From positions 1 to 20,425 of the forward strand of contig JBGSMV010000027.1 in the NCBI GenBank assembly GCA_041739995.1: a stretch of 20,425 nucleotides of DNA, written 5' to 3'. The position numbers were made by a program, and so were the translations under genes. Origin of the DNA: Bdellovibrionota bacterium. Lineage in GTDB: Bacteria; Bdellovibrionota_C; UBA2361; JBGSMV01. The notes under the pieces are model-generated. The model was not told the DNA's origin. It worked only from the letters and a program-made list of their open reading frames with translations, and searched no databases. This document shows positions 36-17,073 of this stretch, in pieces (the stretch's first letter is position 1; each line of letters begins with the position of its first letter).

Positions 36-256
36 GCCTTCCTCCATGTCAAAAAAGTAATCAGTTTTTCAGCAACTAATTCGATTACTTCTGACTGGAG
101 GAAGATTCTTTCCTTACCTCTCCACTTCTACATAGCAACTAGACTCTCTCTTGTGAATCGATCGCGCGACCATCTTTGCGGCGTTACCGAAAAATTGGTA
201 ACGGTCTTATTTCAGCTTTCCTCTCAGGTTGGCACAGCAGTTGCTCACTCCTTCGT

Positions 257-1198
257 ATGAAAACAAGAGCGGTTCTCACATCACTTTCACTCGTACTTCT
301 TTTCAACAGCGACGCCGCGGCGAAACCACAAGCCCCCGAGCCGATTGTCATTGAAGCGATGACGACCTCTATGGCCCGCACGCTCACCGCCAATCCCTCG
401 TGCGTATGGGAGCAGGTGGGCAGACCGTTTAGCGGTTTGCCGCTAGACGCAAACCATCCTGAGGGATTTTTGCACCTTAATGCCTATGCGCCGCAAAGTT
501 GCATTCCTGCAACGGCACCTGTTCACCGCATTCAGACCGCATCTGATCACGCCTGCGATCAGGAGCTCCAACAGTTTACTGAGATCAGCGGACCGTTAAG
601 TTCGAGTGTTTCGATGTGGTGGGGGGAGGACGGCTCGTTGCGTGAGGTATACTCAATGGTCACAACCCGGCGGACCATCTCTGGTCCAACAGGTATCCTC
701 GCAGGACAATTTGGGACCGCCGAAGAGCGCCCCAATTTTGATCTACCACCTCCAATTGTCGGCGCTCCGACATACTCGCAGTTCACGAATGGTGCGCCGA
801 TTGTGGTGACGATGGATTGGGTCCATGGGAATGACTGGATCCTCTTGGATGCGCCGGACGAGCAAGTTGCTCTTGACGAGTTTCAGGAGATTTATGGCTA
901 TGACCCCCGAGACGCGATACTCACCGCCACCATTGAATATCAAGGCAATATCGAACCGATGATTTGGGGACCAACAAGTTTATTCGGAGGTCGTGTGCGT
1001 TACTCGTTAGATGTGTCGCGGAATCCGAACATTTCAGATTGGAATCGCGATAATGTCACGAGTATGCAGGACCTCTTTGGATTTCTGAGTGCGTATTTCG
1101 CTGGCTCGCCACGAGCAAGCTCCCTCGGCGGCGATACAACCTGTTGCGATGTCCTCGATATATTTGCCTATCTCCAAGCGTTCTTTGCACAGCGCTAA
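257..1198 (+). CDS. Secreted protein with C-terminal GC-type dockerin-like domain
   Basis: ATG257 gives a signal-peptide-like N-terminus (MKTRAVLTSLSLVLLFNSDAAA). The C-terminus has two repeats, SDWNRDNVTSMQDLFGFLSAYFAG and DVLDIFAYLQAFFA, resembling the DxNxDG-x-DIFxFLxAYFAG dockerin-like repeats of Phycisphaerales proteins. The ORF track starts further upstream at TTG176. Confidence 0.75.
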   Translation: MKTRAVLTSLSLVLLFNSDAAAKPQAPEPIVIEAMTTSMARTLTANPSCVWEQVGRPFSGLPLDANHPEGFLHLNAYAPQSCIPATAPVHRIQTASDHACDQELQQFTEISGPLSSSVSMWWGEDGSLREVYSMVTTRRTISGPTGILAGQFGTAEERPNFDLPPPIVGAPTYSQFTNGAPIVVTMDWVHGNDWILLDAPDEQVALDEFQEIYGYDPRDAILTATIEYQGNIEPMIWGPTSLFGGRVRYSLDVSRNPNISDWNRDNVTSMQDLFGFLSAYFAGSPRASSLGGDTTCCDVLDIFAYLQAFFAQR

Positions 1199-1669: not shown

Positions 1670-1696
1670 GAAACTCTTGTTGCACTCCGCCGATAA
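1670..1696 (+). promoter_or_regulatory. Sigma-28 (FliA)-like promoter upstream of RAYT 1
   Basis: GAAACTCT-N11-GCCGATAA versus the consensus TAAAGTTT-N11-GCCGATAA; the -10 box (1689-1696) is perfect and ATG follows 10 nt downstream. Confidence 0.55.
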
Positions 1697-1706
1697 TTCC
1701 CCTGCT

Positions 1707-2684
1707 ATGCCATCACCGTTGAAGTATCACCCGCACGGGAGCGTGCTGTTTGTGACCTTGAGCCTCGAGGAAGGTCTGCTCCTGCTCGCGAACCCTCTGT
1801 GCGAAGCGATCGTGAAAAGCTGCCTCGCGAGAGCCCAAGCCCTTCATCCACTAAAGATTTGCCACTTCTTGGTGGAAGCAACGCATATTCACATGATTGT
1901 AGTGGTGGAAAACCCAAACGATGTAAGCGGTTTCATTAGCCGATTTAAAACCGAATCTGCGCATATGCTCAATCGTGTGCTGGGAAGAGCAAAACGCACC
2001 GTCTGGTGCAATGGATACGACAGTCCAGTGGTGCTCACACCCCTTAGAACTCTGATCGCCATTACCTACCTCTATGCGAACCCAGCTAAAGACAACCTGG
2101 AAGACTCAATCACCAAGTACCCAGGACTCTCGAGCTGGGGCATGTTCACCTCAGGAGAGCGTACAAAGCTCTGGAAGCGAATTCGACGACCTGCCCTTCA
2201 TGCACTCTCTCCCGATAGCCATAACCTGAGGGGCTATACCAAGGAAGCTGAGAGAGTCCTCCGAGACTCAAAGAACCTTCACTCCTTTCGGCTTCACCCC
2301 AATGCCTGGATGGAGGCGTTTGGTATCACTGACCCAAGCGAGCAAGCTGAGTGGAATGAACGGCTAAAGGAGAGCCTCTTTGCGATTGAAGTAGAAGCTA
2401 GAGAAGAGCGCGTACGCTTGAATCGCAGACCAATGGGGCAAGAGAAACTTAAGACTCAAGCCATGGACAAGTACTACCAGTCGAAACGGTCGGGACGCCG
2501 CATGTGGTGCCTCTGTGAGGATCGATCTCTGCGCGTCACATTCATTGCTCAGATTAAGGAGCTGATACACTCCGCTCGCCTGGTCTACCGTCGCTGGATT
2601 CTCGGTGACTTCAGTGTGCCGTATCCTCTGGGACTCTATCCCCCGTCGATGCCCAAGCTCGCTGAACCCCTCGGCGCATGGTGA
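1707..2684 (+). CDS. REP-associated tyrosine transposase-like protein (HUH Y1, IS200/RAYT superfamily)
   Basis: N-terminal LFVT strand, HUH motif THIHMIV, VWCNGYDS, catalytic Y..NP motif (YLYANPAKDNL), YPGLSS and a C-terminal FSVPYPLGLYPP tail. Confidence 0.85.
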   Translation: MPSPLKYHPHGSVLFVTLSLEEGLLLLANPLCEAIVKSCLARAQALHPLKICHFLVEATHIHMIVVVENPNDVSGFISRFKTESAHMLNRVLGRAKRTVWCNGYDSPVVLTPLRTLIAITYLYANPAKDNLEDSITKYPGLSSWGMFTSGERTKLWKRIRRPALHALSPDSHNLRGYTKEAERVLRDSKNLHSFRLHPNAWMEAFGITDPSEQAEWNERLKESLFAIEVEAREERVRLNRRPMGQEKLKTQAMDKYYQSKRSGRRMWCLCEDRSLRVTFIAQIKELIHSARLVYRRWILGDFSVPYPLGLYPPSMPKLAEPLGAW

Positions 2685-2892: not shown

Positions 2893-3183
2893 GACGAATT
2901 GCCGCAGCTTTGGAATGTGTTTGTCGGTGACATGAGTATAGTGGCCCCTCGCCCTCCGATTCCAGGAGAGGTGAGTTTGTATGAACGAAAGGATCGTCGT
3001 CGCCTGTCGATGCGACCGGGGCTCACGTGCACCTGGCAGGTAAGCGGCAGGAATACCATCAAAGAGTTCGAGGAATGGGTGCGGCTAGATCTCGACTATA
3101 TTGATAATTGGTCGCTTGTCAGGGACTTCTGGTTGATGGTGCGCACTATTCCGGCCGTGCTCTTGGGAACTGGAGCGCGCTAA
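2893..3183 (+). pseudogene. 5'-truncated bacterial sugar transferase (WcaJ/CpsE-type phosphoglycosyl transferase) C-terminal fragment
   Basis: DELPQLWNVFVGDMSIVAPRP...RPGLTCTWQVSGRN...LDLDYIDNWSL are hallmark motifs; the in-frame sequence upstream of 2893 shows no recognisable homology. Confidence 0.85.
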
Positions 3184-3287
3184 GCCGCAGCTTTAATCAG
3201 TAACCAAACACCTGAGTCAGGTGAAGTTATGTGGGTATCGGGAAGTTTCGTGGCGTACCGAGCCGTGGAGCTGCGATGCTACGCTCG

Positions 3288-4579
3288 TTATTGGAGCAAA
3301 ATTAGTGCTAGCTGCGGTTGTTGCCCGGCATTTGCCAGAACCGAGGTCGCGGTTTGCTGGAGAATCTGATTGCGAATCAGCCGCGCGCTCTCCGCTGCAA
3401 TATCGGAGTCCATAATCCGTGAAGCTGCTGCCAGAGTGTTCTCTGATAGGGTCCTAGCGAGACTTAGGGCTGACTCAAATCGACTTTGCATAGCGCCGAT
3501 GCGTCCGACGTGCTGGCCAAGTTCCAAGCGGCGGTTACTCAAAAATTCTAGCGCCTCAAGCGCTCGTGCGGAGGTTCCTACGGCGGTGAAATCGATAGCG
3601 GAATTGGGGGCGGAAGTCACAGACGGTTTTCCATTGACCGATTGAGCAGCAAACGCCCTAAGTCCTGAGAAGTCGAGCACGGCCGTTCCAGATGTTCCGA
3701 AAAGATTAATCGACTTAGTTGAGGCCCCGACCAGTTGCCCCGTTAGTGGGTCAAAATCGACATCGGCACCGCTACGATAATCATAAGTTCCATCGGCGTT
3801 TTTCGCGAAGACATCGACTCGGCCGTTGGTAGTGCTAGAGATCGCGTGAATTACTACCGCGAAATCTCTAGTAATCCCATCGCTGCCGACGACCGAAACC
3901 GTTGCAGCGGATCCAAGCCGCACGAGCTCTTCTTCGGTGAGAGCGTCGTCGAAGATGTAATCGAGATAGATGATCTGATCATTGTTATCTATACTCCCAT
4001 CGGACCCGGGGATACCACCCTGCGCGCCAATATCGCCTGCGATGTTAAGATTCCCGCTGAAGCGGAGTGTGTTGGTAGTGTTGATGCTCAGGCTCGAATC
4101 GCTGCCCCCAGAAGTGCCGACCTGGATTGAGAGATTGTTGATGCCATTTGATCGACCGGCTTGCAGAAGTAGCGTGTCATTAAAACTTGCACCCTCAGCG
4201 ATTCTTCCCGACTCAAGCAGCAACTGTTGGTACTCGCTGTTAAGCGATCGGCGCTGGGTGTCTGAGAGCACGCCGTTTGCGGACTGCGTTGCAAGCTCGC
4301 TCAGTCGTTGAATGATGCCAGACTGTTGCTCCAGGGCGCTGGCCATGATGTTGAGGCTCGAGAGGCCGTCGTTGATGTTTCGCAGCGCTTGGTTCTGAAG
4401 CCGGGATTGGTTGGTGAGCGAACTTGCCACCGCGAGGCCGGCAGCGTCGTCAGATGCACGGTTGATACGCAGCCCCGATCCCAGGCCAGGCGCTCAATTG
4501 AGCGCGTAAGGTCCTCGGTCGCGCTATCTAACGCGCGCGTTGTCCGCTGAGCTGCTAAATTAGAAGAGAGCGATATCAA
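3288..4579 (-). pseudogene. fliC: Flagellin, frameshifted by a 5-bp tandem duplication (428 aa if repaired)
   Basis: The N-terminus MISLSSNLAAQRTTRAL...IERL (TTG4579, AAGGAG upstream) continues in another frame as SGLRINRASDDAAGLAVASSL. The conserved C-terminus is IGAMQSRFES...SRIMDSDIAAESARLIRNQILQQTATSVLANAGQQPQLALILLQ. Removing one CCAGG at 4481-4490 gives a single 1287-nt frame reading ERLGSGLRIN. Confidence 0.9.
4481..4490. repeat. CCAGG-CCAGG tandem duplication at the flagellin frameshift
   Basis: Directly visible; deleting one unit restores the canonical RLxSGLRIN motif. Confidence 0.8.
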
Positions 4580-4759
4580 CTAGAGACACTGCTCCTTTAA
4601 GCGTAGGTACACCATAGCATTAGGAGTCGACTAGATTGGCTAAAGAATGACGATTGGCCGCGACTAAAGGCGTTCGGGCGCGGGGTTTGTGGGTTTTACG
4701 TAGGTCGATGGGAGGACGTTCTTGCTGCGTAATTCTTGGATTAATAGCACAAGCAGCGC

Positions 4760-7202: not shown

Positions 7203-7877
7203 TTATGCGGCGACTCGAACATCGCTAAGCGACCCCATGTTCCAAATAAGGTCGCAAGATTTCTGGCGAACTCCTCGTCTCATACGACGAAGTGCTGAGT
7301 TTTTAAGGGTGCTTAGATGGCCGCGACTATATCCGAGTCGACGAGCAACTGACGCCACGTTCTCTTCACCTGCGACCGTATCCATTACGACTTGACGCTG
7401 GACCTCCGAGAGCTCGGCCACAAGCTTCCGGCAAAGTTCCCGTACATGATTGCCATGGGTTTCCGCTTCCGGCGAGGGGTTGGGGCAGGAGGGGATTTCT
7501 TTGGTAATCCGCTCACTTTCTTCGGATTTTTGAGCCTCTCTCTCATCGAGCAGAGGGACGTTTCGGATTTCCCTCGTACCTAGTCGCTTCAAGCGCTTGA
7601 GCTCCCCTTTGAGAACGTAATAGAGATAGGTGCTAAGCTCCGCGCCACGAGAGGGGTCGAAGCGGGCCAGGGCCTCGCATAGGGCGTAGTCGATCATCGA
7701 GGTCGCGTCGTCGCGCGGCAGGTCTAGCCCCCAGCGACGAATGAGGTGCCATCCCAGACGATGGGCCATGGGACGATGATGGAGGACTTGTTCCTCGAAC
7801 GAGCCCCCTTCGTTTTTGGCCTGTGCGGGGGGTATTTTTGCTGTTTTCGAATCGCGAATTTCATTTATGTTAATCAT
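7203..7877 (-). CDS. Sigma-70 family RNA polymerase sigma factor, FliA/WhiG-like
   Basis: Region 2 is DDATSMIDYALCEALARFDPSRGAELSTYL and the region 4 HTH is LSEVQRQVV...VASVARRLGYSRGHLSTLKNSALRRMR. GGAGG lies just upstream of ATG7877. Confidence 0.85.
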   Translation of the reverse strand: MININEIRDSKTAKIPPAQAKNEGGSFEEQVLHHRPMAHRLGWHLIRRWGLDLPRDDATSMIDYALCEALARFDPSRGAELSTYLYYVLKGELKRLKRLGTREIRNVPLLDEREAQKSEESERITKEIPSCPNPSPEAETHGNHVRELCRKLVAELSEVQRQVVMDTVAGEENVASVARRLGYSRGHLSTLKNSALRRMRRGVRQKSCDLIWNMGSLSDVRVAA

Positions 7878-8138
7878 AGGAACCTCCAAACATTCCCAAT
7901 TAAGATGATTGTAACATGCAACTAGTTTCAATGAACTTCTAATAGCGAGGGCTAGAACAGTCTTTCATTCATTAAGATATTGATATTACTAGTTTTAAAT
8001 ATTGTCTGGTTCTGGCCACGAAAATAAAGAGTTAAAACGCAGCTAATGTATAATGCAACTATATATGTCCCGCCGACTTGCCTGCTCGTTTTTGAACCGC
8101 CCAATGAGCTTTAGGGCGAGAATTTTGGGATAACTAGT

Positions 8139-9831: not shown

Positions 9832-11139
9832 TTACGCATCGAGCCTTCGCGAGCTTAGTTTCATGGCGGCGTCTTCCCAGGTGTTGTCCGTTACCGAGAG
9901 TGGAGTGCCGGCTGCACTAAACTTATGCCTTAGAGCAATCGACGAGATGTCGAGCCTATCAGCTCCTTGTCGGACAAAAAGGTCACGGCACAGAGCGACA
10001 AATACATCAAACACCGGAGCGATGGCCTCAGCTTCAGCAAAGTGCACTATCTGCCATGATTTTTGGGAATGAACTGCTTCCATAAGCACTACGAACGCGC
10101 CATTTTCTACGAGCGCATAAGTCCTACTGGTTTGGCCAATCAGCGTTTCGCCACACTCTTCTAAAAGCTCCGCTTTCGTAAGGTATGAGATCAGAAATGC
10201 GCGCGCTTGTTTGCGCTCCATTTCGGATTTAAGCACCACGATACCCTCTGGCAATGACTCTTCATTAGGTGACGCTTGCTCAGGTTCTGCAACCGCTCGT
10301 TCGAGTAGCGAGAGAAAGGCTTGACGATCATTTTCGTTGAATTGTTTTAAGCCGATCTTAAATAGTGTATCTGCCGAAGAGAGGATCACTGCGAGGCGTT
10401 TTCGACCAGTTTCGCCGAGCGAAATAATGTATTGGCGGCGGTCTTCAGGGTGGATAGCTCGCGAGAGTATGCCGTTTTCTTCGTATTTAGAGATTAGCCT
10501 GGAGATGCGGGTTTGATCGTATGGTAAATTTTCTTTGAGAATCATGCGTGGAAGGCCTCCGGGGTGTTCGGAGAGCAGACTTAACATTTGAGACTCTTCA
10601 AGAGAAACACCGCTTCCAAAGAGTGTGCCGCCAAGAAATCCTAGCGCACGAGTAAGGCGCCGGATTTGGGCTTTTAGGGGATGATCTCCTGGATTCTCCG
10701 GGATCTCTGGCTGATTGAGTGAGTCCGCCATTATTCTCAGAAACGCAGAGAGTATTTCTAGTTCGGTAGAGGATAGCGATGCCCCAAACTCTTCAATCTG
10801 TTGTTCGCGTGTGCTGAGGTCACGTGCCAGGAATTTTCGACCGACTTCGGTAATTCCAAGAAGTCTCTCGCGGCGGTCTAAAGGATTGGGACTGAAGGTC
10901 AACATGTGGGCGTCAGCCAGTCTGCCGAGCAGCCGGGAAAGAGTGCTTTTCTCAATTTTTAATTGCTCTGTGATCTCTTGAGCAGTGATGGGAATGTCTT
11001 GAAGCTCCGCTGCTTCAATTTCAGAGAGCACGTAACTTTGGTCAACGGTAAGCAAAGGATGGAGGCGGAGCAAAATGCGCTCGAGCTTGCGACTTGCAGC
11101 AAGGAACAGCGTTACAAATTGTTGGGTGCACTCTGACAC
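9832..11139 (-). CDS. Tandem MarR-family winged-helix regulator with a C-terminal extension
   Basis: Two wHTH units (IEKSTLSRLLGRL...NPLDRRERLLGITEVG and DQTRISRLISKY...HPEDRRQYIISLGETG); GGAG precedes GTG11139. Confidence 0.85.
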   Translation of the reverse strand: MSECTQQFVTLFLAASRKLERILLRLHPLLTVDQSYVLSEIEAAELQDIPITAQEITEQLKIEKSTLSRLLGRLADAHMLTFSPNPLDRRERLLGITEVGRKFLARDLSTREQQIEEFGASLSSTELEILSAFLRIMADSLNQPEIPENPGDHPLKAQIRRLTRALGFLGGTLFGSGVSLEESQMLSLLSEHPGGLPRMILKENLPYDQTRISRLISKYEENGILSRAIHPEDRRQYIISLGETGRKRLAVILSSADTLFKIGLKQFNENDRQAFLSLLERAVAEPEQASPNEESLPEGIVVLKSEMERKQARAFLISYLTKAELLEECGETLIGQTSRTYALVENGAFVVLMEAVHSQKSWQIVHFAEAEAIAPVFDVFVALCRDLFVRQGADRLDISSIALRHKFSAAGTPLSVTDNTWEDAAMKLSSRRLDA

Positions 11140-12508: not shown

Positions 12509-15358
12509 ATGTCTGGTTTTGAAAAGCTTTTAGAGCAAATGCGTGTCGATTGGGATCGGCGTATTGCCCATGACTATCGCTTTTGGATGAGCGACGGGCA
12601 CGCTAATGACCAAGCCATGTGGGAAAGTGGTGCACGGGATTTTGAAATTATCACCGCTGGGCTGCAACCTTCTTCCTCACAAACCATGGTCGATCTTGGC
12701 TGTGGAGTCGGACGACTACTAAAAACTGCTTCCCAGAATTTTGGGCGCGTGATCGGAGTAGATGTCTCGGCCGAAGCTATCGAGAAAGCTCGTGAGTTCT
12801 TATTGAGCGGACCAGAAGCGCTTCGTAATACCGAGTTGCACGTAGGGAACGGCTCCGACCTGCAACCAATACCTGAAAGTTCAGTCGATGTGCTGCTTAG
12901 CTTTGCGGCGATCAGTAGTATCCCAACCGAGGTAGTAGGAAACTATCTGCGTGAAATGCACCGAGTGCTTAAGCCAGACGGCGTAGCTCGATTGCAGCTC
13001 TATTTAGGACTCGAACAAACCGTTCGTCGTGAAGACACCCTTCACCTTCGCTGCTATCGCCGAGAACACCTCGAAGAAGCGCTTCGTCGCGCAGGGCTTG
13101 TGCTTGAAGGAGTCACAGAGCTTGTACTTCCCATTCAAGTTTCTTTCAAAGAGATAGGAATCGAGGCGGTAATCGCTTCGGTTCGACGTACCGATCGTCA
13201 GCCCATGTCGGCCGAAGAGATCTCGGCAGCGCTACTGCCTGACGGAGAGCCGATCGAAGGGGAGAGCACCTTAGGCAATGACCTTGAGTACTGGATGACT
13301 CTTAACTATGCCCGAGAGCTCGCTGAAAGAGGCGATCTCGATAGAGCTCGAGAGACGCTCGAGTATGCTGAACGCGTTTCTCACACCACAGCGGTAGATG
13401 TAGGCGATCTCATGCAACGGATTGTTGCAAAAATCGGGAGTTCTGAAGGCAATGGCAGCAAGCCAGCGAGTGAAGTTGCAAAATGTAATGACAACTCCTC
13501 GAACCCTCCCGTTCAAATCGAGAACTCAGGAGCAAAACAAAAGCTACTCACTCGGTTCCCCAATCTTCAGTCAAGATTCTCTGATAGTCCATCAGCGGCA
13601 AAAATCGAGGTTCGAAACACCGAAGAAGGGCCCGTAGTGATTGTTGACGGAGTGGCGCTTGATCATGCCAGCAAACCTAAGTCGGCAGCTCGGCAGTGGG
13701 CCAAACAAGCCATGGGCGATGTAAAGTATGCAAATTGCCAAGAGCTAGTGATAGTCGGGCTTGGATTTGGATACCATATTGAGGCTCTTAGAGAGCTTGG
13801 GTGTGACAAACCAATCCACATACTAGAGCCACATCCTGAGGTGGTGGAGGCGGCAGGGGCTGGGCGTCCTGCGGCTTGGATTGATATGATCTCGTCGCTT
13901 GATTGCGGTGTTGATGCAGCCATTCCACAGGGCAGTACAGTTCTAGGAGGCAACGCAGTCCTAGAAATTTGGACTCGCGCACAGACGCAAGCAGTGGCGT
14001 CGGAGTTTTGTGCAAAGATTCGCAGTAAGTTCTACGGAGAGCGAGGGCTTTCGCTCCTTCGCCCGAATATCGGGGTTCTTGGTCCTCTGAGTGGTGGCAC
14101 CTTGCCCATGGTGCCGTATGTGTGTCGTAGTTTGTATGGCTTGGGCCAACGGTTTCGCGAATATGACGTCAGTGGTTTCGCCTCCGGCTACGACCAAGTT
14201 TCAAAGTTCGTGCAGGGTAAGCCGCGTCGCTCGAGTGTTGAAAACACATACTGCGAAATGGTTTCCCAGGTGCTGCTTGAGTCCATCAACGAGCGCCCAG
14301 TTGATATTCTAATCTGCATGGCACTTGCGCCGATTTCTCCGCGCGTGCTTACCGAGCTTCGCAAGCGTGGGGTGATAACCGTGCTGTGGTTCGTCGAAGA
14401 CTACACTCGATTTACCTACTGGAAAGAAACCGCCAAGTTTTACGACTTCGTGTTCACTATTCAGAAAGGTAAGTGCTTGGACGCCATGCGTGCAGCAGGA
14501 GCTGGCGAGAGCCATTACCTTCCTGTTGGATGCGACCCTGGAATCCATGCCCCCCTAAGTCTTTCGACCGAAGAGAAAGAGCGCTGGGGCTCTCCAATTT
14601 CGTTCATGGGTGCGGGCTATCATAACCGACAGCAACTTTTTGCTTCGTTCTCGGATTACCCAATAAAGATTTGGGGTACTGAATGGCCCACGTGTCGCCC
14701 CTTTGATCATATGGTGCAAGAAGGTGGTCGAAGACTTTCACCGGCTGAATACGTTAAAGTGTTCAATGCATCGGACATCAATATCAATCTGCACTCCTCT
14801 CATGAACGAGATGGAGTGGACCCTTTTGGTGATTTCTTGAACCCGCGCACTTTTGAGCTTGCCGCTTCAGGAGTATTCCAGCTGGTCGACCACCGAAGTC
14901 TCTTGCCGGAGGCGTTTGAGGTGGGAACTGAGATGGCGACTTTTAGAAGTGCCGAAGAACTTCGAGAAAAACTTCAGTACTTCACGGCGCACCCGGAAGA
15001 GCGGGCAAAAATTGCAAACGCATCGAGGGAACGGGCTTTGAAGGATCATACCTATCAGGCCCGTATCCGTTCAATGCTTTCGACGATTTTTAGCAGTCGG
15101 TTTGAGCAGCTCAAGGCGCGCCTTGACGCCTCGCCTTGGCAGAAAGTGCTTGCCCGGGCGAAGCCGCATGCGGAACTGCACAGCCGCTGTGAGAAGGCTT
15201 TTACGCGAGGAGAAGAGCCGAACTTGGACGGTCTAGTAAGCGACGTGGTCGCAGGAAACGGGAAACTTTCAGAGACGGAGCAAAAGCTGATGTTTCTGTT
15301 CCACGTGCGAAAGCAGATCATTCGAATGAAAGAAGAAGAGTCGGGAGGCAAATCGTAG
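12509..15358 (+). CDS. Fusion protein: class I SAM methyltransferase + TPR-like helix + Maf N-terminal-like domain + CgeB/YkvP-type glycosyltransferase (DUF3880/Glyco_trans_1_2)
   Basis: VDLGCGVGRL, VIGVDVS and EMHRVLKPDG (methyltransferase); VDGVALDHASKPKSAARQW...VIVGLGFGYHIEAL...ILEP (Maf-N-like); LWFVED, YLPVGCDP, FMGAGYHNR, NPRTFELAASG and HTYQARI (CgeB-type GT). Confidence 0.85.
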   Translation: MSGFEKLLEQMRVDWDRRIAHDYRFWMSDGHANDQAMWESGARDFEIITAGLQPSSSQTMVDLGCGVGRLLKTASQNFGRVIGVDVSAEAIEKAREFLLSGPEALRNTELHVGNGSDLQPIPESSVDVLLSFAAISSIPTEVVGNYLREMHRVLKPDGVARLQLYLGLEQTVRREDTLHLRCYRREHLEEALRRAGLVLEGVTELVLPIQVSFKEIGIEAVIASVRRTDRQPMSAEEISAALLPDGEPIEGESTLGNDLEYWMTLNYARELAERGDLDRARETLEYAERVSHTTAVDVGDLMQRIVAKIGSSEGNGSKPASEVAKCNDNSSNPPVQIENSGAKQKLLTRFPNLQSRFSDSPSAAKIEVRNTEEGPVVIVDGVALDHASKPKSAARQWAKQAMGDVKYANCQELVIVGLGFGYHIEALRELGCDKPIHILEPHPEVVEAAGAGRPAAWIDMISSLDCGVDAAIPQGSTVLGGNAVLEIWTRAQTQAVASEFCAKIRSKFYGERGLSLLRPNIGVLGPLSGGTLPMVPYVCRSLYGLGQRFREYDVSGFASGYDQVSKFVQGKPRRSSVENTYCEMVSQVLLESINERPVDILICMALAPISPRVLTELRKRGVITVLWFVEDYTRFTYWKETAKFYDFVFTIQKGKCLDAMRAAGAGESHYLPVGCDPGIHAPLSLSTEEKERWGSPISFMGAGYHNRQQLFASFSDYPIKIWGTEWPTCRPFDHMVQEGGRRLSPAEYVKVFNASDININLHSSHERDGVDPFGDFLNPRTFELAASGVFQLVDHRSLLPEAFEVGTEMATFRSAEELREKLQYFTAHPEERAKIANASRERALKDHTYQARIRSMLSTIFSSRFEQLKARLDASPWQKVLARAKPHAELHSRCEKAFTRGEEPNLDGLVSDVVAGNGKLSETEQKLMFLFHVRKQIIRMKEEESGGKS

Positions 15359-15384
15359 CTCAAGCGCTCATTGGATAGATCATT

Positions 15385-17073
15385 ATGCATGGCATTCACG
15401 AACAAACTGGCGCTTTGAAGAAGCGATTTCCACATAAATCGAATGTGCTGCTGGTGAACATTACGCGCCTTGGAGATATGTTACAGGCTACGCCCACCAT
15501 TGCAGGATTGAAGGCCGAGAATCCCGACTGCAAAGTCACCGTGCTGGTGGAAAAGCAGTTTGAGTCAGTGTGTCATTTTATCCCGAATATTGACGCGGTC
15601 CGCTGTCTCGACCTTGGTATGACAGTTCGCGCGCTTGCGCGTGAGCAGGACGGTATCATCGATGCATTCGAGTACGTAACCGAGTTCGTGGACGAACTGC
15701 GTAAGGAAAAGTTTGACTATTGCCTTAATATGTCCTCATCCGCATATACCGCGTTGTTGCTGCGGTTGATCGGTATCGACAATAACGGCGGATGGACCTC
15801 GGATGACGAGGGAAACCGCGTGATCGAATCGGATTGGGCTAAGCTGTTCGCAACATCAGTTTTCCATCAGAATCGGCAGCTTAATTCTCTCAACTTAGTC
15901 GATGTATTTCGATGCTCAGCGGATGTGGAGGCTCATCCGAAGCAGCTCCTTATCAAGGTTGAATCTGAAGCTTCTCAGGTTGCGCGGGATTTGATTGCCG
16001 AAGCGCAGTTTACCAATACTGGACCACTGATCGCCCTTCAAGCAGGAGCGAGTCAGGAGAAACGTCAGTGGAGCCCTAGACTGTTCATTAGCCTGGTTCG
16101 TCAGTTGCTGGATCGCACGTCAGCAAGAATTGTACTGACTGGCACGAACAAGGAACTATCAATTCTTCAACCGATCGTGGATGAGGTGAATAATCCCAAT
16201 GTGTTTGTGGCTGCAGGGAAGACCACTATTCCTCAACTCGCCGCACTGCTGAAAGAATGTCAGCTCTTGGTGACAGGAGACACCGGGACGATGCATATGG
16301 CGGTTGCGGTGGGAACGCCGGTAGTTGCCATGTTCTTAGCTTCCGCATTCGGATTTGAGACCGGGCCATACAGTGAAGGTAACATAATTTTGCAACCGGT
16401 CATTGGCTGTGGCCCTTGTAATCCGAACAAGCCATGCGCTGGACTTGAATGTCACGATACCATTTCACCTGATATCGTGGCGGAACTTGCGGTGCAACGT
16501 CTCGCCGGGGAAGTGCATTCTGTGTCTAGTAGCATCGCCCCGCCTGAGCAGGTAATCGTCTATCGATCATTTTTTGATAAGTATGGATTCTGTGACCTAC
16601 AGGCGCTCAACAATCCGGCAGTGACGGAGCTGTCGCGTTATCGAACGGCCTACCGGAAGCTTTGGCTCGATGATCTAGGGGGCTATCCTGAGCTTGATTT
16701 AGACGCGCCGACCTCGGCACCATCGTCACTTCTTAAGTTTGCAACTCCGGCAGGTGAAGGCCTCGATCAAGTAGTGTTAGGCGCCCGACATGGGCAGCAG
16801 CTAATTCAAGAGCTCTTGCAGCTAGTTGGCGATGCCCATTCGTCCGCCTCACGCCTGGGTGAGGTGAACCGCGCGATAACTGACCTCGACCGGCAAATCG
16901 AGCAAATCGGCTACCATGTCGGTGGAATGGGACCGCTCACTCGTATGTTCGTGTTTTCAAAGGAAAATCTTTCTGGAACGGACCCGCGAGAGCTCGCATC
17001 ACAAATGTTGAACATATATCAGGCGCTTGAGCGGCGTGCACACAAGTTGGCGCTCGCATTAAGCCAGGTTTAG
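15385..17073 (+). CDS. Glycosyltransferase family 9 (heptosyltransferase-like) with C-terminal helical extension
   Basis: LLVNITRLGDMLQATP, LQAGASQEKRQW, LVTGDTGTMHMAVAVGTP, ETGPY and a Cys cluster CGPC..KPC...C. Confidence 0.9.
   Translation: MHGIHEQTGALKKRFPHKSNVLLVNITRLGDMLQATPTIAGLKAENPDCKVTVLVEKQFESVCHFIPNIDAVRCLDLGMTVRALAREQDGIIDAFEYVTEFVDELRKEKFDYCLNMSSSAYTALLLRLIGIDNNGGWTSDDEGNRVIESDWAKLFATSVFHQNRQLNSLNLVDVFRCSADVEAHPKQLLIKVESEASQVARDLIAEAQFTNTGPLIALQAGASQEKRQWSPRLFISLVRQLLDRTSARIVLTGTNKELSILQPIVDEVNNPNVFVAAGKTTIPQLAALLKECQLLVTGDTGTMHMAVAVGTPVVAMFLASAFGFETGPYSEGNIILQPVIGCGPCNPNKPCAGLECHDTISPDIVAELAVQRLAGEVHSVSSSIAPPEQVIVYRSFFDKYGFCDLQALNNPAVTELSRYRTAYRKLWLDDLGGYPELDLDAPTSAPSSLLKFATPAGEGLDQVVLGARHGQQLIQELLQLVGDAHSSASRLGEVNRAITDLDRQIEQIGYHVGGMGPLTRMFVFSKENLSGTDPRELASQMLNIYQALERRAHKLALALSQV

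Follow-up and report, generated by a model that had tools for sequence, protein, structure and literature searches.

A flagellin gene of the FliC family on the minus strand of a Bdellovibrionota contig (JBGSMV010000027.1, assembly GCA_041739995.1; 3288..4579 of 20,425 nucleotides) carries within its variable outer domain a 32-residue motif (3945..4040, minus strand) that is homologous to one repeat of the GC-type dockerin, a family of C-terminal protein tags. On balance, we read this motif as a structural add-on that would bind Ca2+ within an outer domain resembling D2 of the hook protein FlgE in shape, and not as a docking site. The gene is a paralogue from a set of some two dozen flagellin-like genes in the genome, and it is split over two reading frames. 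The window analyzed here is the whole contig (C68) of a metagenome-assembled genome (G000; 3.8 Mb, 81 contigs, 52% G+C, 91% complete) that is filed under Bdellovibrionota and not under Planctomycetota or Phycisphaerales. A preliminary description of the window had drawn attention to the motif and had suggested that it belongs to a flagellum-docking system.

Homology of the motif to GC-type dockerin repeats

Translation of the minus strand at 3945-4040 gives exactly the 32 residues AGDIGAQGGIPGSDGSIDNNDQIIYLDYIFDD that had been quoted in the preliminary description, and these constitute residues 131-162 of a 380-residue open reading frame (ORF; 3288..4430). The ORF is identified as a flagellin by matches to both Flagellin_N (PF00669, residues 2-91, E 2.3e-13) and Flagellin_C (PF00700, residues 304-379, E 4.9e-16), with the motif beginning approximately 40 residues past the end of the former. 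Many NCBIfam flagellin models also match with E values down to 1e-33, all under their equivalog cut-offs, and FlgL models match weakly.

A phmmer search with the 212-residue variable region against 1.84 billion representative proteins returned 257 matches at E<=1e-3, the best 150 of which are described here. As many as 137 cover query residues 7-73 in two to three stretches each (best E 3.1e-9), a segment that includes the motif at query residues 40-71, and these stretches are mostly located at or near the C-termini of unrelated proteins. The others are the protein itself, eight full-length flagellins of 404-463 residues and four long repeat proteins, which match parts of the query other than the motif. 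The matched tags read CPAD.G.QGG.PG.DG.LDNNDF.VFID.FF twice, followed by a terminal GC, and both repeats of each tag match the single flagellin motif. All 12 matches that were sampled exceed the curated 29-bit cut-off of NCBIfam family NF041540 ("GC-type dockerin domain-anchored protein") with scores of 36.5-69.7 bits. A unit profile constructed from 204 units, collected by a strict pattern from 124 of 151 stored proteins, scores the flagellin at 38.4 bits (E 1.6e-9 in a search of all 35,198 genomic ORFs, where the next match has an E of 2.1), while 5000 shuffles of the 32 residues reach a maximum of 14.9 bits. This profile leans to the flagellin since its members were chosen through similarity to it, so the unbiased tests are the phmmer E values and the curated profile. 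Judged from sequence, the likeness of the motif to dockerin tags is far beyond chance, and the earlier reading of it as one repeat of a dockerin-like tag is borne out by phmmer, the unit profile and the shuffles.

The flagellin nevertheless lacks the organization of the tagged proteins. The GC-type dockerin contains the same loop-helix unit (profile consensus ADLGSQGGVPGSDGLLDNNDFVVFIDLFF versus GDIGAQGGIPGSDGSIDNNDQIIYLDYIF in the flagellin), but it has two tandem units at the C-terminus, a Cys before the first unit and a terminal G-C, whereas the flagellin has one significant unit that is internal (131-162 of 380), no Cys anywhere in the ORF and no terminal G-C. The match of the curated NF041540 profile (13.2 bits, E 0.089) remains below its cut-off and is confined to the first repeat (profile positions 4-29 of 67). 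Similarly, a two-repeat profile extends the alignment (positions 24-86) without raising the score (38.2 vs 38.4 bits). No match at E<=10 to the Pfam dockerin (PF00404), to EF-hand or to any other Pfam family was obtained with an 85-residue piece of the protein. Thus the expectation that profile searches would recognize a dockerin is upheld by phmmer and the unit profile and not by the curated NF041540 or Pfam models. The unit is homologous to one GC-type dockerin repeat, yet the flagellin is not a member of the domain family.

With the predicted Ca2+-type loop of the motif, the type I dockerin (PF00404), or F-hand, shares Gly at position 6, a hydrophobic residue at position 8 and Asp at position 12 of a 12-residue loop, as well as a helix that follows. 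It differs in that it does not match the flagellin, which has a single repeat with loop positions 1-3 displaced by an insert and resides in a genome with no cohesin match. One GC dockerin of the host genome also matches PF00404, which links the GC-type and type I families. No partner or function of the GC-type dockerin tag is described in the literature that was searched.

The preliminary description had also assigned the tag type to Phycisphaerales, and this assignment is supported by database labels. The long-type tag of one matched protein (P0012, residues 295-364) has 293 relatives at E<=1e-6; among the best 120 of these, 30 carry an organism label, which is "Phycisphaerales bacterium" in 29 cases and "Chloroflexi bacterium" in one. 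Six labelled relatives (P0085, P0074, P0053, P0129, P0024 and P0073) also match the flagellin itself. A protein-atlas look-up agrees weakly, with Planctomycetota as the commonest phylum among few records. The form of the module in this gene is, at the level of sequence, strikingly close to the Phycisphaerales tags. Protein searches with the whole variable region and with residues 125-172 returned only the flagellin's own protein, and no related loci were found with its own domain among genome contigs or metagenome contigs.

Predicted structure of the outer domain

An AlphaFold2 model of the full ORF, built with 20 homologues (pLDDT 86, pTM 0.79), exhibits the long D0/D1 helices of a flagellin and a beta-rich outer domain of 200 residues (3573..4172, minus strand); a model of the domain alone (pLDDT 68.5) agrees with it. 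A VIA-align comparison of the outer domain with 48,161 chains places FlgE in all top eight rows (Z 9.4-6.0, with the next row at Z 4.7), which are 1wlg_A (Z 9.4, rmsd 3.5 over 129 residues), 5ay6, 6jzt, 6ndt, 5npy, 5jxl, 9wx3 and 6ndx, and there is no flagellin chain among the best 50 rows. The eight Foldseek rows at E<=1.1e-3 (TM 0.39-0.45) are likewise hook (FlgE) structures or flagellar complexes that contain FlgE, namely the hook-filament junction, the distal rod with hook and the filament-tip complex. The outer domain is therefore predicted to be a beta-barrel that aligns to FlgE D2, with a sequence identity of only 11-19%, while the core helices of the protein are those of a flagellin and differ from FlgE. 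FlgE D2 is an all-beta domain, and the loop and helices at residues 44-87 of the domain model would presumably be an insertion relative to it.

The motif would form the first part of this insertion. In the full model, a loop at residues 131-148 (3987..4040, minus strand) is followed by a helix at 149-161 (NNDQIIYLDYIFD; 3948..3986; pLDDT about 80-83, corresponding to helix 63-75 of the domain-only model), by a second short helix at 166-172 (EEELVRL; 3915..3935) that is conserved throughout the subfamily as T.EEL, and then by strands. Both models thus give a loop and then a helix, as had been anticipated. The loop, which is without regular secondary structure apart from a short helix at 134-138, is the long variant, with D133 and an insert QGGIPGS preceding D144-G145-S-I147-D148-N-N-D151. 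Positions 5, 6, 8, 9 and 12 of the EF-hand ligand pattern are occupied appropriately (D144, G145, I147, D148 and D151), and loop position 10 marks the start of the helix, which is also the case in EF-hands and dockerins. Position 12 is Asp in dockerins and Glu in classical EF-hands. Among the 20 homologues, D151 is nearly invariant in an otherwise variable domain, and G145 is nearly invariant in a 10-sequence alignment.

The exiting helix is strongly hydrophobic, with its QIIYLDYIF segment hydrophobic on nearly all sides. This composition fits a helix that is buried by packing and not one that presents a face for binding. We therefore picture an accessory module of approximately 45 residues inserted in the outer domain, comprising a dockerin-type "F-hand" and then the second short helix. 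After export and polymerization, the loop would bind one Ca2+ via D133, D144, D148 and D151 together with backbone carbonyls; Ca2+ would order the loop and start the helix, the hydrophobic face of which would pack on the barrel and on the second helix. The outer domain would thereby be stabilized outside of the cell, where Ca2+ is available.

A different use of the same elements would be pairing in trans, in which half-dockerins of adjacent subunits combine into a two-F-hand fold that braces the outer-domain layer. Dockerins need two mutually packed loop-helix repeats and there is one per subunit here, and dimerization of outer domains occurs in other flagellins. However, in the monomer model the helix is predicted to pack within its own domain beside the second helix, and many family members have no unit to pair, which leads us to view pairing in trans as very unlikely.

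A separate observation regarding the outer domain is that the stretch NGRVDVFAKNADGTYDY (3780-3860, minus strand; ORF residues about 196-237) matches repeats (…GRLDVFARG.DGQLWH…) of the long repeat proteins recovered by phmmer (P0005 in six stretches with E 1.3e-10, P0013, P0027 and P0123). This match may reflect a beta-hairpin motif that the proteins have in common, or it may arise from the summing of scores over repeats.

Conservation of the loop in the flagellin subfamily

The host genome has 24 Flagellin_N matches, 23 of them above cut-off. The nearest paralogues align over their full length with the flagellin discussed here and are 39% (contig C28) and 37% (contig C10) identical to it. 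Where the motif is located, both the intact paralogue on C28 and a truncated one on C41 have PDWDG[IV]GGVAV.DIFAF[LI]SF, which resembles the genome's own short dockerin unit (ADFDGSGAVAVPDIFAFL). A profile of 16 such short units matches these two flagellins at E 0.013 (C28) and E 0.019 (C41), making them the first matches behind 11 dockerin ORFs among all 35,198 ORFs, and a 71-residue piece of the C28 paralogue around the DWDGIGGVAVGDIFAFLSF unit matched none of the NCBIfam families. Several flagellins of this genome are split or truncated (C79:156598/156894, C54, C80, C55 and C67:18767).

With a profile of the subfamily's outer domain (A2), roughly 50 members were found in 17 of 124 genomes of the phylum, at up to 10 places per genome in a genome of the same genus (G001). 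For 24 aligned members (22 of them non-redundant), the invariant Asp served as the reference from which the ligand positions were numbered backwards. Asp is present at position 12 in 21 of the 24 and at position 5 in 16; Gly at position 6, V/I/Y/L at position 8 and D/N at position 9 are each present in 16, and Asp at position 1 in eight. Homologous flagellins therefore keep the D/N ligands, a point on which the preliminary description had made its proposal depend. When the comparison was extended to 42 non-redundant outer domains, about 25 were seen to keep an EF-hand/dockerin-like loop: seven carry the strict D-x-[DNST]-x-[DNSE]-G-x-hydrophobic-x3-D loop (for example DYNGDGRVSPGD, DINENGSITLGD and DPTNDGVVNSTD), 18 more carry positions 5-12 only, including one (L054) with the pattern elsewhere in the domain that is probably false, and 17 carry neither. 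Alignments indicate that the loop-helix is deleted in at least 11 members, namely L027, L043, L046, L048, L049, L052, L054, L055, L056, L057 and P0108.

An EF-hand-like loop thus occurs at the same place in distant members, down to genomes related at the level of "same class", which argues that the element is old and under constraint. The best reading is that the module is old in this flagellin subfamily and often lost. With the unit profile, the flagellin of the window is alone in being strongly dockerin-like; P0004 reaches 13 bits and other members score near zero.

Frameshift in the flagellin gene

The preliminary description had spoken of a "repaired" flagellin, and the gene does indeed need repair. 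The N-terminal approximately 32 codons, which start from a TTG at 4579 (MISLSSNLAAQRTT...SIERLA), are in a different frame from the remainder, for which the open frame itself extends over 4493..3288. At 4481..4490 there is a perfect 5-bp tandem duplication (CCAGG CCAGG in plus-strand letters, the gene being on the minus strand), which is responsible for the frameshift and falls under the size limit of the repeat finder, which did not list it. Reducing it to a single CCAGG in a script yields one frame of 428 codons (4579..3288), and over its first 80 residues the repaired protein can be aligned gap-free with homologues (47 of 79 residues are identical in P0054). In a genome-wide search, the Flagellin_N match reaches C68:4158-4484 (profile positions 28-136). 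As the gene stands, no single intact frame joins the N-terminal D0 segment, which export requires, to the remainder, and because of the frameshift this copy makes no exportable flagellin. An AAAGGAG that may serve as a Shine-Dalgarno sequence is located 12 nucleotides before the TTG (4592..4598, minus strand).

The duplication is unchanged in one public Logan contig that spans the site (run X3, record 12, 4428-4679), and both copies are covered by one Logan contig of run X1 (3975-4497). Four runs hold the gene, all from a single study and labelled as hot springs or biofilm metagenome, one of which may be the source sample. There are no sequence differences at the gene among the contigs of these four runs, and no RNA runs holding the gene are listed. 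Apart from the duplication, the gene is free of stops and well conserved, and both parts align to homologues. From this openness and conservation the inactivation would be recent, or the break may possibly be an on/off slip, the contigs being compatible with either. The copy in the window was probably switched off recently by the duplication near codon 32.

These features bear on whether the motif is a functionless relic, that is, a remnant of recombination with a dockerin-tag gene, possibly from Phycisphaerales, that sits in a decaying pseudogene and binds nothing. The frameshift, the adjacent transposase and truncated sugar-transferase fragment, the lack of a close orthologue in 5.8 billion proteins or in metagenome contigs, and the occurrence of the long unit type nowhere else in the 124 genomes of the phylum all speak for such a relic. 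We nonetheless consider it unlikely since the inactivation appears to be recent, the loop is kept at the same place in distant members, and the motif has a G+C content (0.51) close to the genomic value (0.52).

Dockerins of the host genome

The host genome possesses dockerins of its own, with 14 NF041540 matches at E<=0.01, 11 of which are above cut-off. All are of the short type (ADFNQDGVVNVPDIFAFLSAFFA) that is without the QGG.PG insert, and none matches the long-type profile at E<10. Of the 35,198 ORFs, the flagellin alone contains the long-type pattern. Furthermore, a profile of 11 small long-type tag proteins (A4) searched against the 124 genomes of the phylum matches a single place, again this flagellin (E 4.2e-9). 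The GC-dockerin proteins on contigs C28, C67, C10, C51 and C57 are beta-propeller or DUF7453 proteins (Rax2/DUF5122, PF24251), and their architectures equal those of the Phycisphaerales-labelled proteins P0129, P0132 and P0219. Within the phylum, NF041540 matches are patchy, being present in only six of the 124 genomes, and this distribution suggests that whole tagged genes have been transferred between phyla.

A unit that is so close to the long type, found once in the phylum and otherwise known mostly from proteins labelled Phycisphaerales, could be viewed as mimicry, with a member of a largely predatory phylum displaying it to bind, or to pass as, a planctomycete surface. Of all explanations considered here this is the one to which we give the least credence. 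The data contain no sign of predation or of contact with planctomycetes, a single gene is involved and that gene is broken, and three other flagellins of the subfamily (P0004, P0016 and P0003) have equally spaced long loops of lower similarity, so vertical descent with divergence can explain the likeness.

Genes near the flagellin and the docking question

The preliminary description had also noted a second dockerin-like protein approximately 2 kb from the flagellin, and this protein is real. ORF 176..1198 (plus strand) encodes what looks like a secreted protein, the C-terminus of which carries a degenerate GC dockerin of the short type (1043-1189). Its NF041540 score is 26.8 bits (E 5.2e-6) in a protein search and 28.9 bits, or 29.7 bits with frame neighbours, in a genome search, and only its C-terminal 50 residues resemble the other dockerin proteins of the genome. 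Located between this ORF and the flagellin are a REP-associated tyrosine transposase (1677-2684, plus strand; NF047646, E 3.6e-11, below cut-off) and an apparent C-terminal fragment of a bacterial sugar transferase (2899-3183, plus strand), which give the area a rearranged look. On C28, two beta-propeller proteins with GC dockerins are encoded 2.7 kb from the flagellin, and no flagellar family is present in the other ORFs that were scanned around it (a symporter, FG-GAP repeats and DUFs).

One could envision from these neighbourhoods a filament on which single dockerin units, displayed by the thousands, bind in a Ca2+-dependent manner to a cohesin-like or other partner, for instance a component of the surface or the beta-propeller proteins with GC dockerins. 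The family of the unit is named for an anchoring tag, the module is optional and is added to a surface domain, two of the four subfamily flagellins of the genome lie within 3 kb of a GC-dockerin gene, and five of the six genomes with NF041540 also hold the flagellin subfamily. However, such closeness is seen in this genome only: the nearest flagellin-dockerin pair in G042, a genome of the same order, is approximately 187 kb apart, and in G031, G054 and G058 the two kinds of genes share no contig. The five genomes fall in three families and are related, not independent. Conversely, NF041540 is not matched at E<=1e-5 in 12 of the 17 subfamily genomes, including the same-genus G001 with its 10 flagellin places; G001 and G012 have no match at E<=0.001 either. 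Additionally, the host genome, which is 91% complete, has no match to cohesin (PF00963) at E<=0.01, which for an incomplete genome does not prove absence, the unit is only half a dockerin without the flanking Cys and terminal GC, the neighbouring dockerin protein has only its tag in common with other dockerin proteins, and the helix appears too hydrophobic for exposure to solvent. We therefore regard docking or adhesion as quite unlikely, and the flagellum-docking system proposed earlier finds neither conserved synteny, nor a cohesin, nor a unit in every family member.

A broader speculation would join several of these ideas, with filaments serving as display scaffolds on which half-dockerins complete each other between neighbouring subunits or recruit GC-dockerin proteins, the unit having been taken from or imitating Phycisphaerales tags, and the CCAGG duplication serving to turn off a single variant in a set of more than 20 flagellin genes. 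We find this slightly less credible than pairing of subunits by itself; if true, the flagellum of a member of a largely predatory phylum would bear a planctomycete-like tag. For docking, pairing in trans and mimicry, the support amounts to two local neighbourhoods and a co-occurrence that is confounded by kinship.

Assessment of the proposed Ca2+-binding module and relation to known systems

Several of our observations also weigh against a Ca2+-binding structural module. EF-hand positions 1 and 3 are shifted by the QGGIPGS insert, as they are in the long-type tags, and the confidence of the loop model is middling (pLDDT 65-72). The curated dockerin profile remains below its cut-off, and hhalign, run with the subfamily against the long-type tags, pairs the correct columns at a probability of 12.6% (E 0.0023), which is below significance, so that homology to dockerins at the level of the subfamily is only suggestive. 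At least 11 of the 42 outer domains lack the whole loop-helix, from which it follows that the module is dispensable for the fold, and dispensability fits an add-on function such as binding or surface variation equally well as it fits stabilization. The co-occurrence of the flagellin subfamily with GC dockerins remains a hint of a link between the two. Finally, the gene in the window is broken, leaving this copy functionless now, it stands isolated in the databases, and it has no apparent partner.

It is already known that flagellin outer domains can gain added functions. The flagellinolysin report (Eckhard et al. 2017, PMC5595980) gives 61 domain families in the hypervariable regions of flagellins, and its main text does not mention dockerin, EF-hand or calcium-binding domains. 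As described there, flagellinolysin-type flagellins likewise have a foreign module recombined into a surface-exposed region and multiplied by polymerization; the difference is that flagellinolysin is an enzyme domain, whereas the module described here is a metal loop of 30-45 residues (PMC5595980). No flagellin with a dockerin-type Ca2+ loop-helix turned up in the literature that was searched. If the loop does bind Ca2+, then it would provide a simple case of metal-dependent folding for a protein that is exported unfolded through the flagellar channel, as well as an experimental handle, in a small soluble domain, on the uncharacterized GC-type dockerin unit. The subfamily is also of interest for its FlgE-D2-shaped flagellin outer domain, for the very large flagellin families of its genomes and for the likeness across phyla to Phycisphaerales tags.

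Other features of the window

Three plus-strand ORFs overlap the flagellin gene (3370..3645, 3846..4130 and 3982..4311), and the region is accounted for by the minus-strand flagellin frame. A consensus scan, in which four sites were found against 2.3 expected from shuffles, gives weak support to a terminator-like hairpin approximately 65 nucleotides past the stop codon (3209..3223, minus strand). Promoter-like sites were no more frequent in the scan than in shuffles, and no clear sigma-28 promoter was seen upstream of the gene.

A sigma-70 family factor is encoded 2.6 kb from the flagellin (7203-7931, minus strand). It exhibits weak likeness to SigB/F/G (E 4e-12) and to FliA/WhiG (E 1.5e-8), far under the respective cut-offs, and could be a flagellar or alternative sigma factor. 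At 12509-17073 (plus strand), a 949-residue fusion of a methyltransferase with DUF3880 and Glyco_trans_1_2, which has a faint match to Maf_flag10_N (E 0.009), is followed by a 562-residue protein resembling GT9 heptosyltransferases; this segment may be a glycosylation island for lipopolysaccharide or flagellin. MarR family proteins are normally single-domain dimers, and the 435-residue protein encoded at 9832-11139 (minus strand) is unusual for the family in having two tandem MarR-type winged-helix domains (MarR_2, two stretches).

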